The notes under the pieces: generated by a model
Told to the model about the DNA's origin: nothing
Databases searched by the model: none
What the model saw: the letters and a program-made list of their open reading frames with translations, nothing else
In this document: positions 39,091-61,253 of the stretch, in pieces
Layout of the letters: every line of letters starts with the position of its first letter
Numbering within the stretch: the stretch's first letter is position 1
Program-made: the position numbers and the translations under genes
From: a virus
Length of the DNA stretch: 64,000 nucleotides
Direction: 5' to 3' (one strand)
IMG/VR virus record: IMGVR_UViG_3300010399_000001
Span: 1 to 64,000 of that record

Positions 39091-39172
39091 TGGTGCCGGG
39101 GACGGGGTTCGAACCCGCACTGGGGCTGTGGCTTTTGAGACCCGCCGCCTCTGTTAGTTGGGCCACCCCGGC
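39091..39172 (-). tRNA. tRNA-Leu(CAA), atypical
   Basis: GCCGGGG/CCCCGGC acceptor with ACCA end; T-loop GGTTCGAACCC; loop CTCAAAA; D-loop lacks GG and the anticodon stem is weak. Confidence 0.7.
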
Positions 39173-47227: not shown

Positions 47228-47254
47228 GTGAATGCGCGCTGTTTCTGCACACCG

Positions 47255-47327
47255 CGCTCCTGGCGGGATTTGAACCCGCGGCCACCGCCGTGACAGGGCG
47301 GCGCTCTGACCTCTGAGCTACAGGAGC
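47255..47327 (-). tRNA. tRNA-Asp(GTC)
   Basis: Canonical cloverleaf, loop CTGTCAC, G73, no encoded CCA. Confidence 0.9.
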
Positions 47328-51035: not shown

Positions 51036-51563
51036 TTACGCCGCCTCGGCCTCTCGCGCCAGGCCGCGCTCATTCCGGCCATAGACGCGCTGAGACTTCT
51101 TCTTGGCTAATGCCCTTAGCCCATTGGCTAGGACCTCTAGCGCTTCGGACTTGCGGCTTGCGGGGCGGCAGCAGCCGTCGCAGCCGTGGACCTGCCAGAC
51201 ATCGCGCCTGTCGTACCGCGCGAGCCAGTCCAGAGAGTCCGGGTCGGGATGACCCACCCCGTGCGGGCAGATGCGCTCGCTCAGGGTCAGCTTCATCCCG
51301 TTGCGTACCACCTGGCGATCCATGCGGTGAACCAGCGGCCAGTGGTTCATGTGGTGATTGGAGGGATTGTGGATGCAGCATCGCTGCCCCGCGCAGACCG
51401 AGGGGCTGTGGGTGTGCAGGACCGGACGACTATGGATCTCCTGATCCGGACCATCCTTGCCGAGGATGGCGCTGATTTGATAGTCGTCGAAGATCATTGC
51501 ATTGGCGATCCTGATGCCATCCCATGAACCGGACATGCTCACTGCCTGCTCCCCTCCGCCCAT
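51036..51563 (-). CDS. Cys/His-rich metal-binding protein
   Basis: CCIHNPSNHHM...ERICPHGVGHPDPD...HGCDGCC. Confidence 0.6.
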   Translation of the reverse strand: MGGGEQAVSMSGSWDGIRIANAMIFDDYQISAILGKDGPDQEIHSRPVLHTHSPSVCAGQRCCIHNPSNHHMNHWPLVHRMDRQVVRNGMKLTLSERICPHGVGHPDPDSLDWLARYDRRDVWQVHGCDGCCRPASRKSEALEVLANGLRALAKKKSQRVYGRNERGLAREAEAA

Positions 51564-52075
51564 CGGCGGACGTTGCCGAGGTGCTTATCGGTGATACCGG
51601 TGCGAGGACTGACCGGCTCGTAGAGGGTCGGCGCGATCATACGGTCCCGCATTCCGGCCTCGGTCAGATCCATCGGGGTGAACTCGTCATCCAGCCATGC
51701 GTACGGGCGATGGCGGACATACTCCTCCACGCTCGGCCGCTTCCAGATCCGCAGGGGATCGCCCCGCTGCCACACGCACTCGATGGTCGGTAACTGCGGC
51801 AGACCCAGGATGGGGGCGATCAGCTTGTTTGCCAGATCGTTCCACGCGGTAGCCCAGACTAGATCCACAACGTCGGTCAGCTCAAGAAGCTGCCTGCCGT
51901 GATCGGGATTGAGCCACACCCGGATGCCACCCTTGACCCACGGGCGGCCGAGTGGATCGGTGAATGCCCCGCTGAGCAGGCGGTGCGTCTGGAATCCCGG
52001 CGGCCTGCGGGTCGGCTTGGCCGCGTAGGGGTTGAGCGGACCGTCCACATCGATCAGCAATAGCGGCTTGTTCAT
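51539..52075 (-). CDS. HAD-superfamily phosphatase (RNA-repair-associated type)
   Basis: LLLIDVDGPLN motif I; WATAW; AWLDDE motif. Confidence 0.85.
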   Translation of the reverse strand: MNKPLLLIDVDGPLNPYAAKPTRRPPGFQTHRLLSGAFTDPLGRPWVKGGIRVWLNPDHGRQLLELTDVVDLVWATAWNDLANKLIAPILGLPQLPTIECVWQRGDPLRIWKRPSVEEYVRHRPYAWLDDEFTPMDLTEAGMRDRMIAPTLYEPVSPRTGITDKHLGNVRRWAEGSRQ

Positions 52076-52076
52076 C

Positions 52077-53039
52077 TCAGAAGTCTCCGTACTCGACCTG
52101 GTGGCAGGGCAGCTTGTAGACCAGCCGCCACAGATCGACCACCTGGTTGCGGTCGTCATAGACGGCCTCGACGTTGTAGCGGCCTCGGATGTTCTGCTCG
52201 AACAGCTGCGACTTGACCACGAAGTCCGGCCGCCTGTCCCCAGTGGGGCGCATGTGCAGGTCGCTGTACTTGATGTTGTGGGCTCGCAGCCACGCCTCGG
52301 TCTGCCTGCGGTACTCCTCCTGGCGGCCGGACAGAAGGATGATCTTGATCTCGCCGTCGACGTACGGGTAGATGTCGATCAGATTGGCAACTGCCTCGTT
52401 CAGGCTGTCGGTCTCCAGCTCCTCCAGGTCGTAGGGACCCCTATCCGCATGCTTCGCCAGGGTGCCGTCGATATCGAACAGCACGCACCAGGGCAGATCA
52501 TCGTCGATAACGCAGGGCTGAACTGGGCGGATCAGGTCACGCCACTCGTTCATCCACTCATCGGTCAGCTTCCAGCCGTCCTTGCGGGTGGACTGATGGC
52601 GCTCCCACATACCCCGGATGACCGACTCGCCCACTCGCTCCCCATCGCGCCGCCCGGCGTCCACGGCGATGCACTCCTCGACCGTCATATCAGTCAGGTC
52701 GTGAACCCGGAAGATCACATTGCGGGTGGAGAGGGTCGTGCGGTACCGATTGGGCAGCTTGTAGCCCATGTGGGTGTTGTCGATCACCACGTCGTATCCG
52801 GCGTCCACCGCGCTCATGACGCCGCGCAGCATGGCCTTCTGAACCACCTTCTCGATGGCGTCATCCCATCTGGGGATGCTCATCATCCGGCGGTAGTCGT
52901 CCAGATTGAAGCGCATGGCCGAGATGCTGCGAGCGTACGTGCTCTTGCCAGAGCCGGGCAGGCCGTGCATCACATGGATCACCACCTCCTTACTGGATGG
53001 ATCGTGACGCGGATCAGCCGCGAGATCGTAGACGCGCAT
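52077..53039 (-). CDS. pseT: Polynucleotide 5'-kinase/3'-phosphatase (T4 PseT/Pnkp-like)
   Basis: P-loop GLPGSGKSTY, DDYR; C-terminal HAD FDIDGTLA, SGR, K, DDR. Confidence 0.92.
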   Translation of the reverse strand: MRVYDLAADPRHDPSSKEVVIHVMHGLPGSGKSTYARSISAMRFNLDDYRRMMSIPRWDDAIEKVVQKAMLRGVMSAVDAGYDVVIDNTHMGYKLPNRYRTTLSTRNVIFRVHDLTDMTVEECIAVDAGRRDGERVGESVIRGMWERHQSTRKDGWKLTDEWMNEWRDLIRPVQPCVIDDDLPWCVLFDIDGTLAKHADRGPYDLEELETDSLNEAVANLIDIYPYVDGEIKIILLSGRQEEYRRQTEAWLRAHNIKYSDLHMRPTGDRRPDFVVKSQLFEQNIRGRYNVEAVYDDRNQVVDLWRLVYKLPCHQVEYGDF

Positions 53040-53178: not shown

Positions 53179-54843
53179 TTAGAAAGGCCAGCTACCATCA
53201 CCGGCAGACAGCGAGGCCAGCATCGTGAACACCTTGTCGGAGAACCCGCCGATCTCGTACCGGTTCGGCTTGCTCGTGTCGATGCTGGATGCACCGTAAC
53301 CCGAGGTGTTGATGCCGAACATCGGCACGCGGTCCGGAATGGCCTCCGACACGCTCATACCGCGCACCTTGCCGATCGCATCGTAGTAGCCGACCGAACC
53401 ACCACCGGGGTAGTGGAACGCCTGCATGTCCGAGACGATGACCACCCGATCATGACCGGAGTAGCTGGCCTTGAGGGCGGCGACCGTCTCGGTACCGTGA
53501 CCGACCGAGCCGACGCGCTTGCTGAATCCCTCGATGTCGCGCAGCAGGCTGCCGCCGTTCTTGAGCGGGTACTGGAAGACTCCGTTGGCGAAGCCGACCA
53601 GGTCCACATTCTTCGGACCGCACTTACGCGCGATCGCCACGCCGATCAGAGCGCCGATATCGACATGACGGATGCTCGACTTGGCCGAGACGTTGCTGTG
53701 CATCGATCCGGAGGTGTCTACCAGGACCAGGGTGCGGCCCGGCAGGTTGGGGATGTTGGCGCATGCGTGACCCAGCGCCTCCTCCAGCGGCTGACCCCAG
53801 CGCAGCGAGTTGAGCGAGCGGTAAGCCGACAGGAACCGGTACGGGAACTGGCGGGACTTGGCCACCTGAGCCGGGTCGCTGATGCGCGAGGCGACCTTCT
53901 CGTAGACCTCCTTGCCAAGCTTGGCCTCATCGAAGTTGCGCAGGTTGCGCAGCAGCGCCATGTAACCCATCGACGGGATGATCGCCTCCCAGGCGATGCG
54001 ATCCATCGGGCCCTGGAGCCAGCCGGACAGCGCCTCCCAGGTGATGCCAGCCTCACGCAGCCGCTCCGCTGCACCGGAAGCCTTGACAAAGCTCCGGCGC
54101 TCAGCGAGGGGGAGGGACAGCAGCTCCTTGCGCTTGCGCAGCATCGTCAGCGACTCGGGGATCTCCTTGCCGCGCCCGTGCCTCTCGTCGATGATGTGCT
54201 CGAACAGGTCCCCCTGCTCGGGCGTGACGAATGCGGCGTTGAACCGGTCGACAGGGTGCACCATCTCGATCACGTCGGCGAAGCGCACACTCTTGTCCGG
54301 CGAGTCGTACTTGGAGTACGAGTACTCGCTGTAGAGGCGGCGCACCGCATCACCGGTACCGCGCTTGATCGAGATCGGGATGCGGTTGCGGCCATAGTTG
54401 GCGATCCAGTAGGCCAGCAGCTCCCCCGGCTCGTCGGCGCGAGAGCACGCCAGGGAGATCAGGCGGCGGTTGATGCCGACCGGCACATCGTTGCGGATAT
54501 CGGTCGGAGCCATGAGCGTGCGGGTACGCACCGCCTCGGCGGCGATGACGATAGACGCGGTGCGCATGTTGGCCTCGTTGCGCAGCCACGGGATGAAGCC
54601 CAGCAGCCACTGCGGGTCCTCGCGCGCAACGGCGGCGGCCAGCTCCTTCAGGCGCTTGGCCTGGTCGCTCTTGGACTCGTAGAACTTGTCCTCGCCCATG
54701 TAGGTGACGGCCAGGATGAACAGGTCGCTCTTGGCGTCACGCTTGAACGCCGCCCCACTCTCGAAGGTGGTGGTCTTCTCCCCCGTGGTGCGCACCGGCC
54801 CGAGGGTCGCAGTGCCACCCGAACGCTTGTTGAATCCAGACAT
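53179..54843 (-). CDS. rsr: Ro60/Rsr TROVE-domain RNA-binding protein with C-terminal vWA
   Basis: FYES...WLRNEANMRT...TWEALS...MGYMALLRNLRNF...SRQFPYRFLSAY...LVDTSGSM...SDMQ...GFSD. Confidence 0.95.
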   Translation of the reverse strand: MSGFNKRSGGTATLGPVRTTGEKTTTFESGAAFKRDAKSDLFILAVTYMGEDKFYESKSDQAKRLKELAAAVAREDPQWLLGFIPWLRNEANMRTASIVIAAEAVRTRTLMAPTDIRNDVPVGINRRLISLACSRADEPGELLAYWIANYGRNRIPISIKRGTGDAVRRLYSEYSYSKYDSPDKSVRFADVIEMVHPVDRFNAAFVTPEQGDLFEHIIDERHGRGKEIPESLTMLRKRKELLSLPLAERRSFVKASGAAERLREAGITWEALSGWLQGPMDRIAWEAIIPSMGYMALLRNLRNFDEAKLGKEVYEKVASRISDPAQVAKSRQFPYRFLSAYRSLNSLRWGQPLEEALGHACANIPNLPGRTLVLVDTSGSMHSNVSAKSSIRHVDIGALIGVAIARKCGPKNVDLVGFANGVFQYPLKNGGSLLRDIEGFSKRVGSVGHGTETVAALKASYSGHDRVVIVSDMQAFHYPGGGSVGYYDAIGKVRGMSVSEAIPDRVPMFGINTSGYGASSIDTSKPNRYEIGGFSDKVFTMLASLSAGDGSWPF

Positions 54844-54844
54844 G

Positions 54845-54873
54845 AAAAAACCCCTCTCGTCTTGACGGAGGGG
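54845..54873 (-). terminator. Intrinsic terminator between the RNA array and the Ro60 start codon
   Basis: Minus strand CCCCTCCGTC-AA-GACGAGAGGGG-TTTTTT-C-ATG. Confidence 0.7.
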
Positions 54874-54880
54874 AAAGGCA

Positions 54881-55033
54881 TGGTAGCGCCCGAGATCAGA
54901 AGTCGGTGGCGGTGTTTTCAGTCTTATGCTCTACCTGACTGAGCTACCCCACCCGAAGGCGGGGGCAGGATTCGAACCTGCGACCGTAAGATTAGCAATG
55001 AAGTATCCGTCACCTGCGCTTCGGGCGCTGCCA
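54881..55033 (-). ncRNA. Y RNA unit 7 (YrlA-like permuted tRNA domain)
   Basis: Scaffold CCGAAGCGCAG/GATACTTC/TGATCTCGG; T-arm, then TTCG-capped acceptor stem, then D-arm; TAAGA-CTGAAAA remnant. Confidence 0.85.
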
Positions 55034-55040
55034 AAACCTT

Positions 55041-55127
55041 TCCCGAGATCAGTGTGAATGGCGGTATTATGCCTCGAACTACCATGTGAAGGTTATTGAG
55101 AAGTAACCGTCATTCTGCGCTTCGGGA
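55041..55127 (-). ncRNA. Y RNA unit 6 (short; hairpin with TTCACAT loop)
   Basis: Same scaffold motifs and terminal stem. Confidence 0.8.
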
Positions 55128-55140
55128 TGAAGCCTTTGGT

Positions 55141-55250
55141 CCCTCCGAGATCAAGATGGCGATGGAGAGCGGGACTTGAACCCGCAGAATTCCGTTGCTT
55201 AGACAGAATCATTCAACCAATGAAGTAACCATCACCTGCGCTTCGGAGGG
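55141..55250 (-). ncRNA. Y RNA unit 5 (non-permuted D/anticodon/T arms ending in GCCA)
   Basis: Same scaffold; ATTCTGT-CTAAGCA-ACGGAAT arm; GCGGG-TTCAAGT-CCCGC T-arm. Confidence 0.8.
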
Positions 55251-55262
55251 TGAAGCAGTAGA

Positions 55263-55417
55263 TATGGACATCCCCGAGATCGAGTCGACCAAGGTAACGT
55301 TAGGCGCTTTAGGCCACTAAGCTACCCCCGGATGAGCCCAGGGGGCAGGATTCGAACCTGCGATCTCCCGCTCCCAATGCGAAGTAACCCTATGTCTGCG
55401 CTTCGGGAATGTCCATA
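55263..55417 (-). ncRNA. Y RNA unit 4 (YrlA-like, ATTGGGA loop)
   Basis: Scaffold plus anticodon stem-loop, T-arm, closed acceptor stem and D-arm. Confidence 0.85.
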
Positions 55418-55428
55418 ACAAAGCAGGG

Positions 55429-55576
55429 GATGCGGTCCCGAGATCAATTCGGCTGGGAGGTGTTTAACGTGCTGCCATTGCACCACCGGCCCAGGAGTGG
55501 ACCGGACAGGATTCGAACCTGCATCTCTCCATTAGAAGTGAAGTAACCCCTTATGCCTGCGCTTCGGGGCCGCATC
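55429..55576 (-). ncRNA. Y RNA unit 3 (YrlA-like, CTTCTAA loop)
   Basis: Scaffold plus CTTCA-CTTCTAA-TGGAG, T-arm, closed acceptor stem and D-arm. Confidence 0.85.
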
Positions 55577-55605
55577 TTCTCATTCTCTATTCAGTTGTGA
55601 AAAGC

Positions 55606-55738
55606 ATCCCGAGATCAAGCCGGTGAACGAAAGCGCATTGGACCACTCTGCCACGACCTGCCTGCACTAGTCAGACAGGCGCTGGGATTCGAACCCAGGT
55701 TCTCTGTGAGAAGTAACGCTCAACCTTCGCTTCGGGAT
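55606..55738 (-). ncRNA. Y RNA unit 2 (YrlA-like, class II-type D-arm)
   Basis: Scaffold; CTGGG-TTCGAAT-CCCAG T-arm; long acceptor stem; GGCAGAGTGGTCCAATGC. Confidence 0.85.
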
Positions 55739-55749
55739 ATGAAGTTTGA

Positions 55750-55830
55750 CAGCTCCGAGATCAAGTCGATGCCAGGCGTTGGTGTCTAATTTACAGTTAG
55801 AAGTAACCCGGCTTCTTCGCTTCGGAACTG
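55750..55830 (-). ncRNA. Y RNA unit 1 (minimal; TCTAA-CTGTAAA-TTAGA stem-loop)
   Basis: Same scaffold carrying a single 5-bp stem with a 7-nt loop. Confidence 0.8.
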
Positions 55831-55835
55831 AGACT

Positions 55836-55864
55836 AAGCTACCGTGCTCATCGGCTAAGTGCAA
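55836..55864 (-). promoter_or_regulatory. Sigma70/HrdB-type promoter for the Y RNA array
   Basis: TTGCAC-17 bp-TAGCTT, ending 5 bp before the first unit. Confidence 0.7.
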
Positions 55865-60565: not shown

Positions 60566-61253
60566 GCCGCTTGCGGTGGTGTCCCTCTCGGGCGGGATGG
60601 ACTCCACGACCCTGCTGGCCCACCTGCTGCAAGACAATGAGGTGCTGGCTCTATCGTTCGACTACGGACAGCGCCACCGCAAGGAGCTGGACGCGGCCAG
60701 GGATGTCTCGCAGTACTACGGCGTCGAGCATCACGTGATCGATCTGACCTCGGTGGGCAAGCTGCTGACCGGCTCGGCTCTTACCGACAGCTCGGTAGAG
60801 GTTCCCGAGGGTCACTACGAGGCCGAGAACATGAAGGCCACCGTCGTGCCGAACCGCAACGCGATCATGGCCAGCATCGCCATCGGTATTGCCAGTTCGC
60901 GCAAGGCGAAGTTCGTGGCTCTCGGCATCCATGCCGGTGATCACGCGGTCTACCCGGACTGCCGGCCTGAGTTCGTCGAGGTGCTGCGGGAGCTGGCCTC
61001 TGTGGCGCTGGACGGCTTCCATGCCCCACGCATCGAGACTCCGTTCGTGCTGTGGTCCAAGACTGGCATTGCGCGTGAGGCTGGACGCCTCGGGGTCCCG
61101 ATCGAGCGCACGTGGAGCTGCTACAAGGGTGGCGAGAAACACTGCGGCCGATGCGGTACCTGCGTCGAGCGCATCGAGGCGATGCGGGACGCAGACGTGG
61201 CAGATCTGACCGAATACGAAGATAAGGCGTTCGCCGAGGGGGTGCTGGCCTGA
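60558..61253 (+). CDS. queC: 7-cyano-7-deazaguanine synthase
   Basis: SGGMDS, YGQRH, VPNRN, YPDCRPEF, TWSCY, CGRCGTC. Confidence 0.95.
   Translation: MSKPLAVVSLSGGMDSTTLLAHLLQDNEVLALSFDYGQRHRKELDAARDVSQYYGVEHHVIDLTSVGKLLTGSALTDSSVEVPEGHYEAENMKATVVPNRNAIMASIAIGIASSRKAKFVALGIHAGDHAVYPDCRPEFVEVLRELASVALDGFHAPRIETPFVLWSKTGIAREAGRLGVPIERTWSCYKGGEKHCGRCGTCVERIEAMRDADVADLTEYEDKAFAEGVLA

Follow-up and report, generated by a model that had tools for sequence, protein, structure and literature searches.

What purpose does the transfer RNA (tRNA)-like module of bacterial Y RNAs serve? Such RNAs have been on record since 2000, and YrlA since 2013-14, and the locus that we describe here raises this question anew. 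It lies in an IMG/VR virus record of 115,046 bp (IMGVR_UViG_3300010399_000001; direct terminal repeats, G+C of about 0.63), the opening 64,000 nucleotides of which we call the window. There, seven structured units (54882-55830, minus strand) stand directly upstream of a phage Ro60 gene. What do these units display, and to which partner? Our comparison of the array with Ro60 loci from phages and bacteria indicates that, by geometry and by loop conservation, the hairpin lying 5' of the T arm genuinely mimics an anticodon arm, and varies in its triplet, throughout a large subfamily from actinobacteria and actinophages. The identity of the partner can be approached with less confidence, and several explanations are weighed below.

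Seven Y RNA units on one scaffold

The array is bounded by the stop codon of the upstream open reading frame (ORF; 55868) and by the ATG of Ro60 (54843), and its last unit ends 38 nt short of this ATG, on the same strand. Three motifs, each present exactly seven times on the minus strand of the array and in strict alternation, delimit the units:

55825, 55735, 55567, 55406, 55246, 55125 and 55024, minus strand: CCGAAGCG, from a motif scan
55805 to 55005, minus strand: TACTTC, seven sites from a motif scan
55762 to 54897, minus strand: GATCTCGG, seven sites from a motif scan

The combined 5' motif has no copy outside the array anywhere in the 115-kb genome. In each unit, the terminal stem consists of CCGA/TCGG lengthened by 3-10 pairs of unit-specific sequence, and another stem that is likewise peculiar to the unit (-9 to -14 kcal/mol) lies between AGCG(C/A)AG and G(U/A)UAC. 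Because the stem sequences differ from unit to unit, both scaffold helices covary among the seven paralogues. The units are separated by short spacers of 8-30 nt and fold with z-scores of -1.8 to -3.9. A first-pass annotation of the window had given their sizes as 81-155 nt; the lower end stands, and the upper end becomes 151 nt with the present delimitation. The scaffold carries the following bodies:

55750..55830, minus strand: U1, hairpin-only (YrlB-like), the scaffold plus one hairpin of 5 bp and 7 nt (z -3.40)
55606..55738, minus strand: U2, permuted tRNA-like (T arm, closed acceptor stem, D-like arm), from folding
55429..55576, minus strand: U3, complete circularly permuted tRNA body (Rfam tRNA 30.6 bits; Rfam YrlA 25.4 bits, partial)
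55266..55414, minus strand: U4, complete circularly permuted tRNA body (Rfam YrlA 27.9 bits, partial)
55141..55250, minus strand: U5, non-permuted cloverleaf-like body in the scaffold (minimum-energy fold a cloverleaf, z -3.89)
55036..55132, minus strand: U6, hairpin-only, with a degenerate T-loop-like GUUCGAG (z -2.84)
54882..55032, minus strand: U7, classical YrlA-type (Rfam YrlA RF02553, 50.2 bits, E 5.7e-10 locally, full model length)

Folding bears out the four permuted, one non-permuted and two bare-hairpin architectures of the first-pass annotation, as the permuted domain of T arm, closed acceptor stem and D arm is present in U2, U3, U4 and U7 and absent from U1, U5 and U6.

Do these units belong to a known kind of RNA? 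The defining features of YrlA are a CGAA-type motif, a YUAY motif, the permuted T/acceptor/D order and adjacency to Ro60 (Chen et al. 2014, PMC4201824). In the window, YCCGAAG lies inside the covarying terminal helix in 7/7 units, YUAY (as GUUAC or GAUAC) occurs in all seven as well, and the array shares the strand of Ro60 and lies within a few kb of it. The Rfam YrlA model gave a mixed answer: U7, the best unit, matches over the full length, U4 and U3 match in part, and none reaches the gathering score of 69 set for RF02553, a model that contains neither the extra hairpin nor the phage scaffold. Judged by these features, the units are of the known YrlA/YrlB kind and not a new class, and the description of the locus as seven YrlA-kind Y RNAs on a constant Ro60-type scaffold, directly upstream of phage Ro60, holds. 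Very probably, seven Y RNAs of the YrlA/YrlB type are transcribed here as a single unit, every one of them closed by a helix with CGAA such as Ro60 binds.

Two flanking elements, both read from the sequence, bear on its expression:

55836..55864, minus strand: weak promoter-like site, TTGCAC-17 nt-TAGCTT
54845..54873, minus strand: terminator-like hairpin of 9 bp with one bulge, followed by T6

Each hexamer of the promoter-like site fits the consensus at 3/6 positions, and a start from this site would fall near the first base of the U1 closing stem. The hairpin stops one base ahead of the Ro60 ATG and probably holds the ribosome-binding site in its 3' arm. A consensus promoter scan listed nothing upstream of the array, the TTGCAC-17-TAGCTT site included, and the hairpin is absent from the list of a simple consensus scan because of its bulge; as both elements fail the consensus scan, we infer co-transcription and attenuation here. 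A 65-codon TTG-initiated ORF (55667-55864, minus strand) overlaps U1 and U2, and it is almost certainly spurious, since RNA structure is conserved there.

The hairpin ahead of the T arm

The array was compared with about 170 Ro60 loci, among them about 90 actinophage contigs and 80 Actinomycetota genomes. Of the viral loci, 80 from IMG/VR were gathered by a Ro60 alignment search, and units were anchored on TACTT upstream of Ro60. Simpler searches did not suffice: megablast of 20 kb of the window against phages found no match, and neither did a single-protein Ro60 query against IMG/VR, so that the alignment-based search was required. An exact-motif scan of IMG/VR returned 90 loci, with a real array in L065 alone, an IMG/VR contig with four units bearing exactly the window motifs; the remainder were single chance matches. 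A variant scaffold, CGAUGCGYAG...GWUACUUC...UUUUCUAG, is found in the phages BRock (4 units), GiJojo (5), LuckySocke (5) and pSt2308 (4-5), and further variants occur in VanLee (4), Frankenweenie (3) and Quantum (3). In all seven of these phages the array stands directly upstream of Ro60 on the same strand, Atuin being an exception with its units downstream of Ro60. The number of units upstream of Ro60 is 2-9 across the 80 IMG/VR loci and mostly 2-3, up to 6, in the 80 Actinomycetota genomes. Multi-unit arrays are the rule in actinophages and the window array is not exceptional in its clade, contrary to the impression given by the first-pass annotation; its remark that YrlA usually comes in one or a few copies is right for the literature and wrong for these actinobacteria and actinophages.

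To read the hairpin ahead of the T arm, we used a geometry grid anchored on the T loop and blind to loop sequence, which combined loop length with distance to the T stem and asked for a fully paired 5-bp stem. The viral sample consisted of 111 non-identical units in which 26-31 nt separate TACTT from the T loop. A 7-nt loop with 4 or 5 nt to the T stem, as in tRNA, gave full pairing in 34 and 29 of these (60 distinct units kept), and every other combination of loop length and offset in 0-9 each. Bacterial units behaved in the same way, with the tRNA geometry fully paired in 16 and 39 of 87 (54 distinct) versus 0-12 otherwise. Automatic picking of minimum-energy hairpins was dropped as unreliable, having chosen CUUC-UAAU-GGAG in U3 and a 7-bp/4-nt alternative in the third unit of VanLee.

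The hairpin set numbers 112 after removal of two true tRNA-Thr genes, and 83 when made non-redundant. These 83 loops follow the grammar C32-U33-NNN-R37-A38, with C32 in 65/83, U33 in 77/83, a purine at 37 in 80/83 and A38 in 81/83. Positions 34-36 hold 34 different triplets, the commonest being GCU, and no triplet is repeated within one array (0/18 arrays having two or more such hairpins). Moreover, G37 is nearly confined to loops with G36 (counts 19/1/1/62; Fisher p 1.5e-16, and 1.2e-10 on the 48 distinct loop sequences, values that overstate independence because the sequences are related), and this coupling matches that of real tRNAs. Changes on both sides of a stem pair are seen at 30-40 in 60/107 sequences and at 31-39 in 50/107; the 100% pairing of the helix carries no weight, because the hairpins were selected for it. 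Homologous arrays among the roughly 170 loci keep U33, a purine at 37 and covarying stems, the features on which the first-pass annotation had staked its reading beforehand, and they vary in unit number and triplet.

How the frame and the triplet differ is seen in 21 orthologous Streptomyces-type units, in which UACUUCCACU-NNN-AAUGGGG is invariant save at anticodon positions 34-36; the triplets there are GUU, CAU, CUU, GAU, CCA, GCU, ACU and GGU. As the 5' strand of the stem lies in the family-wide TACTTC, the hairpins share one ancestor and do not derive from repeated capture of tRNA genes. The loop frame is kept across loci with Ro60 identity as low as 42-58%.

One could nevertheless regard the hairpin as an evolutionary residue without function, its grammar inherited from decaying dimeric tRNA transcripts, as in the model of Sim and Wolin, or from repeated overwriting by nearby tRNA genes through recombination. 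A dimeric-tRNA origin would place an anticodon arm ahead of the T arm, the arrays of relatives sit within large tRNA gene clusters, and ARAGORN as well as GenBank annotators label parts of units as tRNAs. We consider such a residue quite improbable, given that the common TACTTC strand points to single ancestry and yet the grammar persists at such low Ro60 identity, that the hairpin is invariant outside 34-36 in the 21 orthologues though their flanks diverge, and that chromosomal rsr loci without tRNA clusters keep the grammar too.

In the window itself, U3 and U4 have all the features of an anticodon stem-loop. The arm of U3, CUUCA-CUUCUAA-UGGAG (55527-55543), is followed on its 3' side by a 4-nt variable loop, the T arm, a 7-bp acceptor stem closed by ACUCCU, and the D arm; the acceptor hairpin is near-identical to that in the last unit of BRock. 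The arm of U4, UUCGC-AUUGGGA-GCGGG (55367-55383), carries G36 followed by G37. We un-permuted both units by cutting at the D-arm/anticodon-arm junction, and with a canonical junction and the default threshold of ARAGORN each became a complete cloverleaf with a 7-bp acceptor stem, U3 a tRNA-Arg(UCU) and U4 a tRNA-Pro(UGG). In native order, ARAGORN finds no tRNA anywhere in the array, and the Rfam tRNA match on U3 uses the scaffold as a mismatched acceptor strand. A linker of 8-11 nt runs between the D arm and the scaffold in both units.

Among the other five units, U1 has the stem and the loop of an anticodon arm: its hairpin UCUAA-CUGUAAA-UUAGA (55785-55801) obeys the family grammar and has counterparts in bare units elsewhere (CUGCAAA in Quantum and VanLee, CUGUAAA in the IMG/VR locus L104), bare units in general giving a weaker anticodon-loop signal. 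The hairpin ahead of the T arm of U2 has merely a 3-nt loop and falls outside the anticodon-arm class. U5 and U6 are weak candidates that fall outside it as well, the first because its loop CUAAGCA has a C at position 37 and breaks the grammar (Rfam tRNA 19.4 bits, no ARAGORN call), the second because the stem below its loop UUCACAU has 3 bp. The anticodon stem of U7, UCUUA/UAAGA, begins one base after the D arm and continues into the scaffold, like the Salmonella structure, and CUGAAAA forms the 5' half of an anticodon arm that is open, which is the classical YrlA arrangement. The six anticodon loops proposed by the first-pass annotation therefore reduce to three, as coordinates and grammar are right for U1, U3 and U4 and the claim fails for U5, U6 and U7. 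The family to which the window belongs holds two classes: classical YrlA without an anticodon loop, and complete permuted tRNAs from which the scaffold leaves at position 26/27.

Could the units be tRNA genes in permuted order, with products that mature into tRNA-like molecules able to be charged? The acceptor loop would be opened by RNase P, CCA would be added, and the two-piece RNA would be aminoacylated according to its anticodon, either supplementing tRNAs or mimicking charged tRNAs for toxins that act on 3' ends. The complete cloverleaves of un-permuted U3 and U4 fit this proposal, as do the opening of the acceptor loop by RNase P and the CCA addition shown for Mycobacterium smegmatis YrlA, the ACCA encoded in the acceptor loop of some relatives (L143, L151), and a window genome with just 3 tRNAs where relatives have dozens. 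In addition, the synthetases that correspond to many of the displayed triplets rely on the anticodon as their main identity element. The acceptor side tells a different story: many acceptor stems in relatives, and that of U7, are capped by UUCG and have neither discriminator nor CCA, and one acceptor stem serves CAU, CUU, GAU, GUU and CCA variants. Bacterial tRNA-Ser has a long variable arm, which SerRS needs, and GCU units have a variable loop of 4-5 nt instead. A helix at position 26 would also be expected to clash in the ribosome, and the PolyA_pol profile for CCA-adding enzymes has no match in the genome. We judge maturation into chargeable molecules improbable. Given the absence of a native-order call, the short variable loop of GCU units, the shared acceptor stems and the UUCG caps, the units are by all appearances not ordinary tRNAs.

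A practical point is that annotators now label pieces of Y RNA units as tRNAs. GenBank phage records leave the arrays unannotated, save for parts of single units labelled tRNA. Such labels overlap a Y RNA unit in GiJojo (tRNA-Arg(cct), L095 2769-2843), LuckySocke (tRNA-Ser(gct), L097 2274-2347), VanLee (tRNA-Arg(tct), L099 2177-2248) and Frankenweenie (a 91-nt tRNA-Pro(tgg), L101 2245-2335), and they are probably mis-annotations in which the 5' strand of the scaffold was read as acceptor and D arm. In the BRock group, the array begins no more than about 10 nt from the 3' end of a tRNA-Asn(gtt) gene (L094 2420-2430; L095 2285-2300; L097 1785-1795; L102 1805-1815). Since the array abuts a genuine tRNA gene there, tRNAs and Y RNAs probably share one precursor in this group.

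Possible partners of the displayed loops

A loop frame that is strongly constrained around a free triplet argues that the partner reads anticodon loops. This turns the vague notion of a tRNA mimic into a testable hypothesis. The explanation to which we lean, tentatively, is that the units serve as Ro60-anchored decoys or competitive inhibitors of anticodon-loop-directed enzymes. YrlA was suggested earlier as a possible competitive inhibitor of an anticodon nuclease by Hughes et al. (2020, PMC7790460), and the Salmonella rsr-yrlBA-rtcBA operon is induced by tRNA halves (same reference). Enterobacterial Ro60/Y RNA loci thus form part of an operon that responds when tRNAs are cleaved in the anticodon loop.

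From the anatomy, the conservation, the loop grammar and the triplet variability observed, we infer transcription, Ro60 binding and interaction with nucleases along the following lines. Transcription would pass from the array through a leaky terminator into the Ro60 gene, and the transcript would be cut apart into unit RNAs; because of the leaky terminator between array and gene, the RNAs would be made in excess over Ro60. The constant scaffold carries one classical YrlA (U7), two complete permuted tRNAs (U3 and U4) with their free ends at the D-arm/anticodon-arm junction, a permuted body whose hairpin is stunted (U2), one that is not permuted (U5) and two that are hairpin-only (U1 and U6). 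Ro60 would grip the scaffold, and the tRNA-like body with its anticodon stem-loop mimic would be presented to proteins that read anticodon loops. With its acceptor end closed, in relatives often by UUCG, the unit RNA would be barred from translation. The targets would be anticodon-loop-directed nucleases of host defence or toxin systems, the specificity of the decoy would be set by the freely changing triplet at 34-36, and the Pnkp of the window phage could heal cut ends. Pnkp is the end-healing enzyme in the classic answer of phage T4 to anticodon nuclease. The genes that follow the array are:

53179..54843, minus strand: Ro60 (Rsr/TROVE), 554 aa (Pfam TROVE 1.8e-14; phrog_850 2.8e-50)
52077..53039, minus strand: polynucleotide kinase/3'-phosphatase, Pnkp (Pfam HAD_PNKP 1.8e-46 and AAA_33; phrog_505 5.3e-76)
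51539..52159, minus strand: weakly matching HAD phosphatase, 'Swiss Army Knife RNA repair' type (Pfam HAD_SAK_2 1.1e-05; 26.3 bits against a cutoff of 27.5)

Window Ro60 shares 36-42% identity with annotated Ro-like proteins from phages of Streptomyces, Arthrobacter and Gordonia, and up to 58% with the chromosomal Rsr of Catenulispora and Streptomyces; its best matches among solved structures are those of the Ro60 of Thermus phage phiLo (9KOP and 9L5Y). A homologue of the HAD phosphatase (35% identity over 175 aa) is encoded upstream of the nine-unit array of L104 (IMGVR_UViG_3300045049_000234, 642-1136), and this is the sole recurrence of any window neighbour gene near Ro60. A downstream ORF of 461 aa was considered as a ligase and rejected, as it resembles a helix-turn-helix protein.

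Several points weigh against the decoy explanation, besides the relatedness of the sequences and the selection for pairing mentioned above. A loop that conforms to the grammar is present in 3/7 window units (U1, U3 and U4). Free variation at 34-36 suits a plain lack of constraint as well as an arms race, and in the close-knit Streptomyces-type group the loop of the acceptor stem is about as variable as the triplet. A stoichiometric decoy must outcompete a very large tRNA pool. Because bacterial chromosomes share the architecture, the function is not specifically one of phage counter-defence. As for the neighbouring genes, Pnkp adjoins Ro60 in none of the other roughly 170 loci and is peculiar to the window phage, and no conserved partner gene is found downstream of Ro60 in this set. 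RNA ligases were sought in the whole genome with the RtcB and RNA_ligase profiles, which have no match; the T4 Rnl1 family (PF09511) has none in the genome either, with a control that likewise matched nowhere.

Some of these points fit better with a second explanation, which ranks next after the decoy and which we hold possible at a lower level of confidence. The tRNA-like body may tether an effector, in that it brings a host protein that binds tRNA to Ro60 and so serves the decay or quality control of RNA in the course of infection, with PNPase, RNase P or a modification enzyme (TrmD, the t6A complex, MiaA or TruA) as candidates. The triplet would then be neutral and 34-36 would drift, because the partner reads the shape of the loop (U-turn, 32, 33, 37 and 38), and extra units would merely raise the dose or diversify stability. 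Position-37 modification enzymes of tRNA require couplings of the G36-G37 and U36/A36-A37 type, and such couplings are present in the loops. That the triplet is about as variable as the acceptor loop and that cellular rsr loci have the same architecture is also expected from a tether. Tethering is, furthermore, the known role of Y RNAs, as in the Deinococcus Ro60-Y RNA-PNPase machine (PMC4201824), and the Ro60 and Yrls of phage phiLo form a complex with host PNPase (PMC12135203). A tether leaves unexplained why triplets do not repeat within arrays and why phages have expanded to 7-9 units with different bodies, and no effector of YrlA is known.

It is also conceivable that the display is directed at the ribosome, where an exposed anticodon stem-loop would pair with a codon in the decoding site of the small subunit and bring Ro60 and a nuclease to ribosomes or to particular mRNAs. 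Isolated anticodon stem-loops do bind the 30S decoding site, and Deinococcus Rsr sediments with degrading ribosomal subunits, its authors deeming an interaction with ribosomes possible. This association of Rsr with subunits is, however, independent of Y RNA, and the hairpin-only and classical units would be left unexplained; we regard a ribosome-directed particle as very improbable.

Returning to the decoy, one may ask how far it could extend beyond the window. It is possible, if doubtful, that the Ro60-Y RNA particles of Actinomycetota and their phages are a programmable display of anticodon stem-loops, a shield made of RNA against tRNA-cleaving toxins and defence nucleases, with 7-9 cassettes in phages. 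In this display, the loop frame (32, 33, 37, 38 and the 36-37 coupling) would be fixed and the triplet diversified both among arrays and inside them. If true, bacterial Y RNAs would gain a definite molecular role, and phage counter-defence a new class that consists of RNA.

Other features of the genome touch on tRNA biology. ARAGORN finds three tRNAs in the 115 kb, Asp-gtc at 47254 (window 47254-47327, minus strand), Met-cat at 98014 and Asn-gtt at 108992; in relatives of similar size (BRock, GiJojo, LuckySocke and pSt2308), Ro60 is embedded among a dozen or more tRNA genes. A further Rfam tRNA match at 39094-39172 of the window (minus strand; 31.6 bits, barely above threshold) has an odd D arm, an insertion in the variable region and no ARAGORN call, and may represent a tRNA that is degenerate or unusual. 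A gene for QueC (7-cyano-7-deazaguanine synthase; window 60573-61190, plus strand, 210 bits) lies some 5 kb away from the array and may point to deazaguanine modification of the phage DNA; the TGT/DpdA Pfam domains have no match in the genome.

Comparison with known systems

Phages are known to answer anticodon nucleases in two ways: T4 Pnkp and Rnl1 repair tRNA-Lys cut by PrrC, and sets of phage tRNAs replace cleaved host tRNAs. The window resembles the T4-type response in that Pnkp is encoded two genes downstream of the array and in that the triplets vary like a specificity determinant. It differs in that no ligase was found in its genome and in that the unit RNAs are not functional tRNAs. 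To our knowledge, a decoy mechanism on a Ro60 scaffold has been demonstrated nowhere.

Circularly permuted tRNA genes of Cyanidioschyzon merolae and other algae (cf. Wang et al. 2018) are similar to the window units in that the 3' part of the tRNA is encoded first and a short loop links the acceptor ends. The algal RNAs mature through a circular intermediate into ordinary tRNAs. In the window, by contrast, a conserved Ro60-type scaffold fills the break point and many acceptor loops are stable tetraloops, and for these reasons maturation into tRNA is unlikely.

Among Y RNAs, U1 and U6 resemble YrlB of Salmonella and Yrl1/Yrl2 of phiLo (PMC12135203), which are short, have the CGAA stem, lack a tRNA-like domain and stand beside a larger Y RNA. 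The difference is that U1 and several of its homologues bear a 5-bp/7-nt hairpin with a CUGUAAA or CUGCAAA loop; as far as we checked, published descriptions contain no anticodon-loop reading of YrlB-type hairpins.

The closest comparison is with YrlA itself. Published YrlA loci usually have one or a few copies, versus seven in the window. YrlA of Salmonella, Mycobacterium smegmatis and mycobacteriophages shares with the window the position beside Ro60 on the same strand, the 5' CGAA-type motif, YUAY and the permuted domain. It differs in the published motif GNCGAA(N)G, which starts with a G where the YCCGAAG of the window units does not, and in the attachment of the scaffold, which in the complete permuted tRNAs (U3, U4 and related units) is made by a long linker at position 26/27. 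Above all, the two differ in the extra hairpin. YrlA has been said to have no anticodon loop (Wang et al. 2018, bioRxiv 10.1101/312249), and the YrlA papers describe mimicry of the D, T and acceptor arms only (Chen et al. 2014; Wang et al. 2018). Relative to the literature consulted, it appears to be new that a large subfamily bears a true mimic of the anticodon arm in which the triplet varies, and that phages extend the set to as many as nine cassettes. What has been published as the variable ("V") arm has full anticodon-arm geometry in the window and in about 110 related units, and in the actinobacterial and actinophage clade it should be re-read as an anticodon arm.

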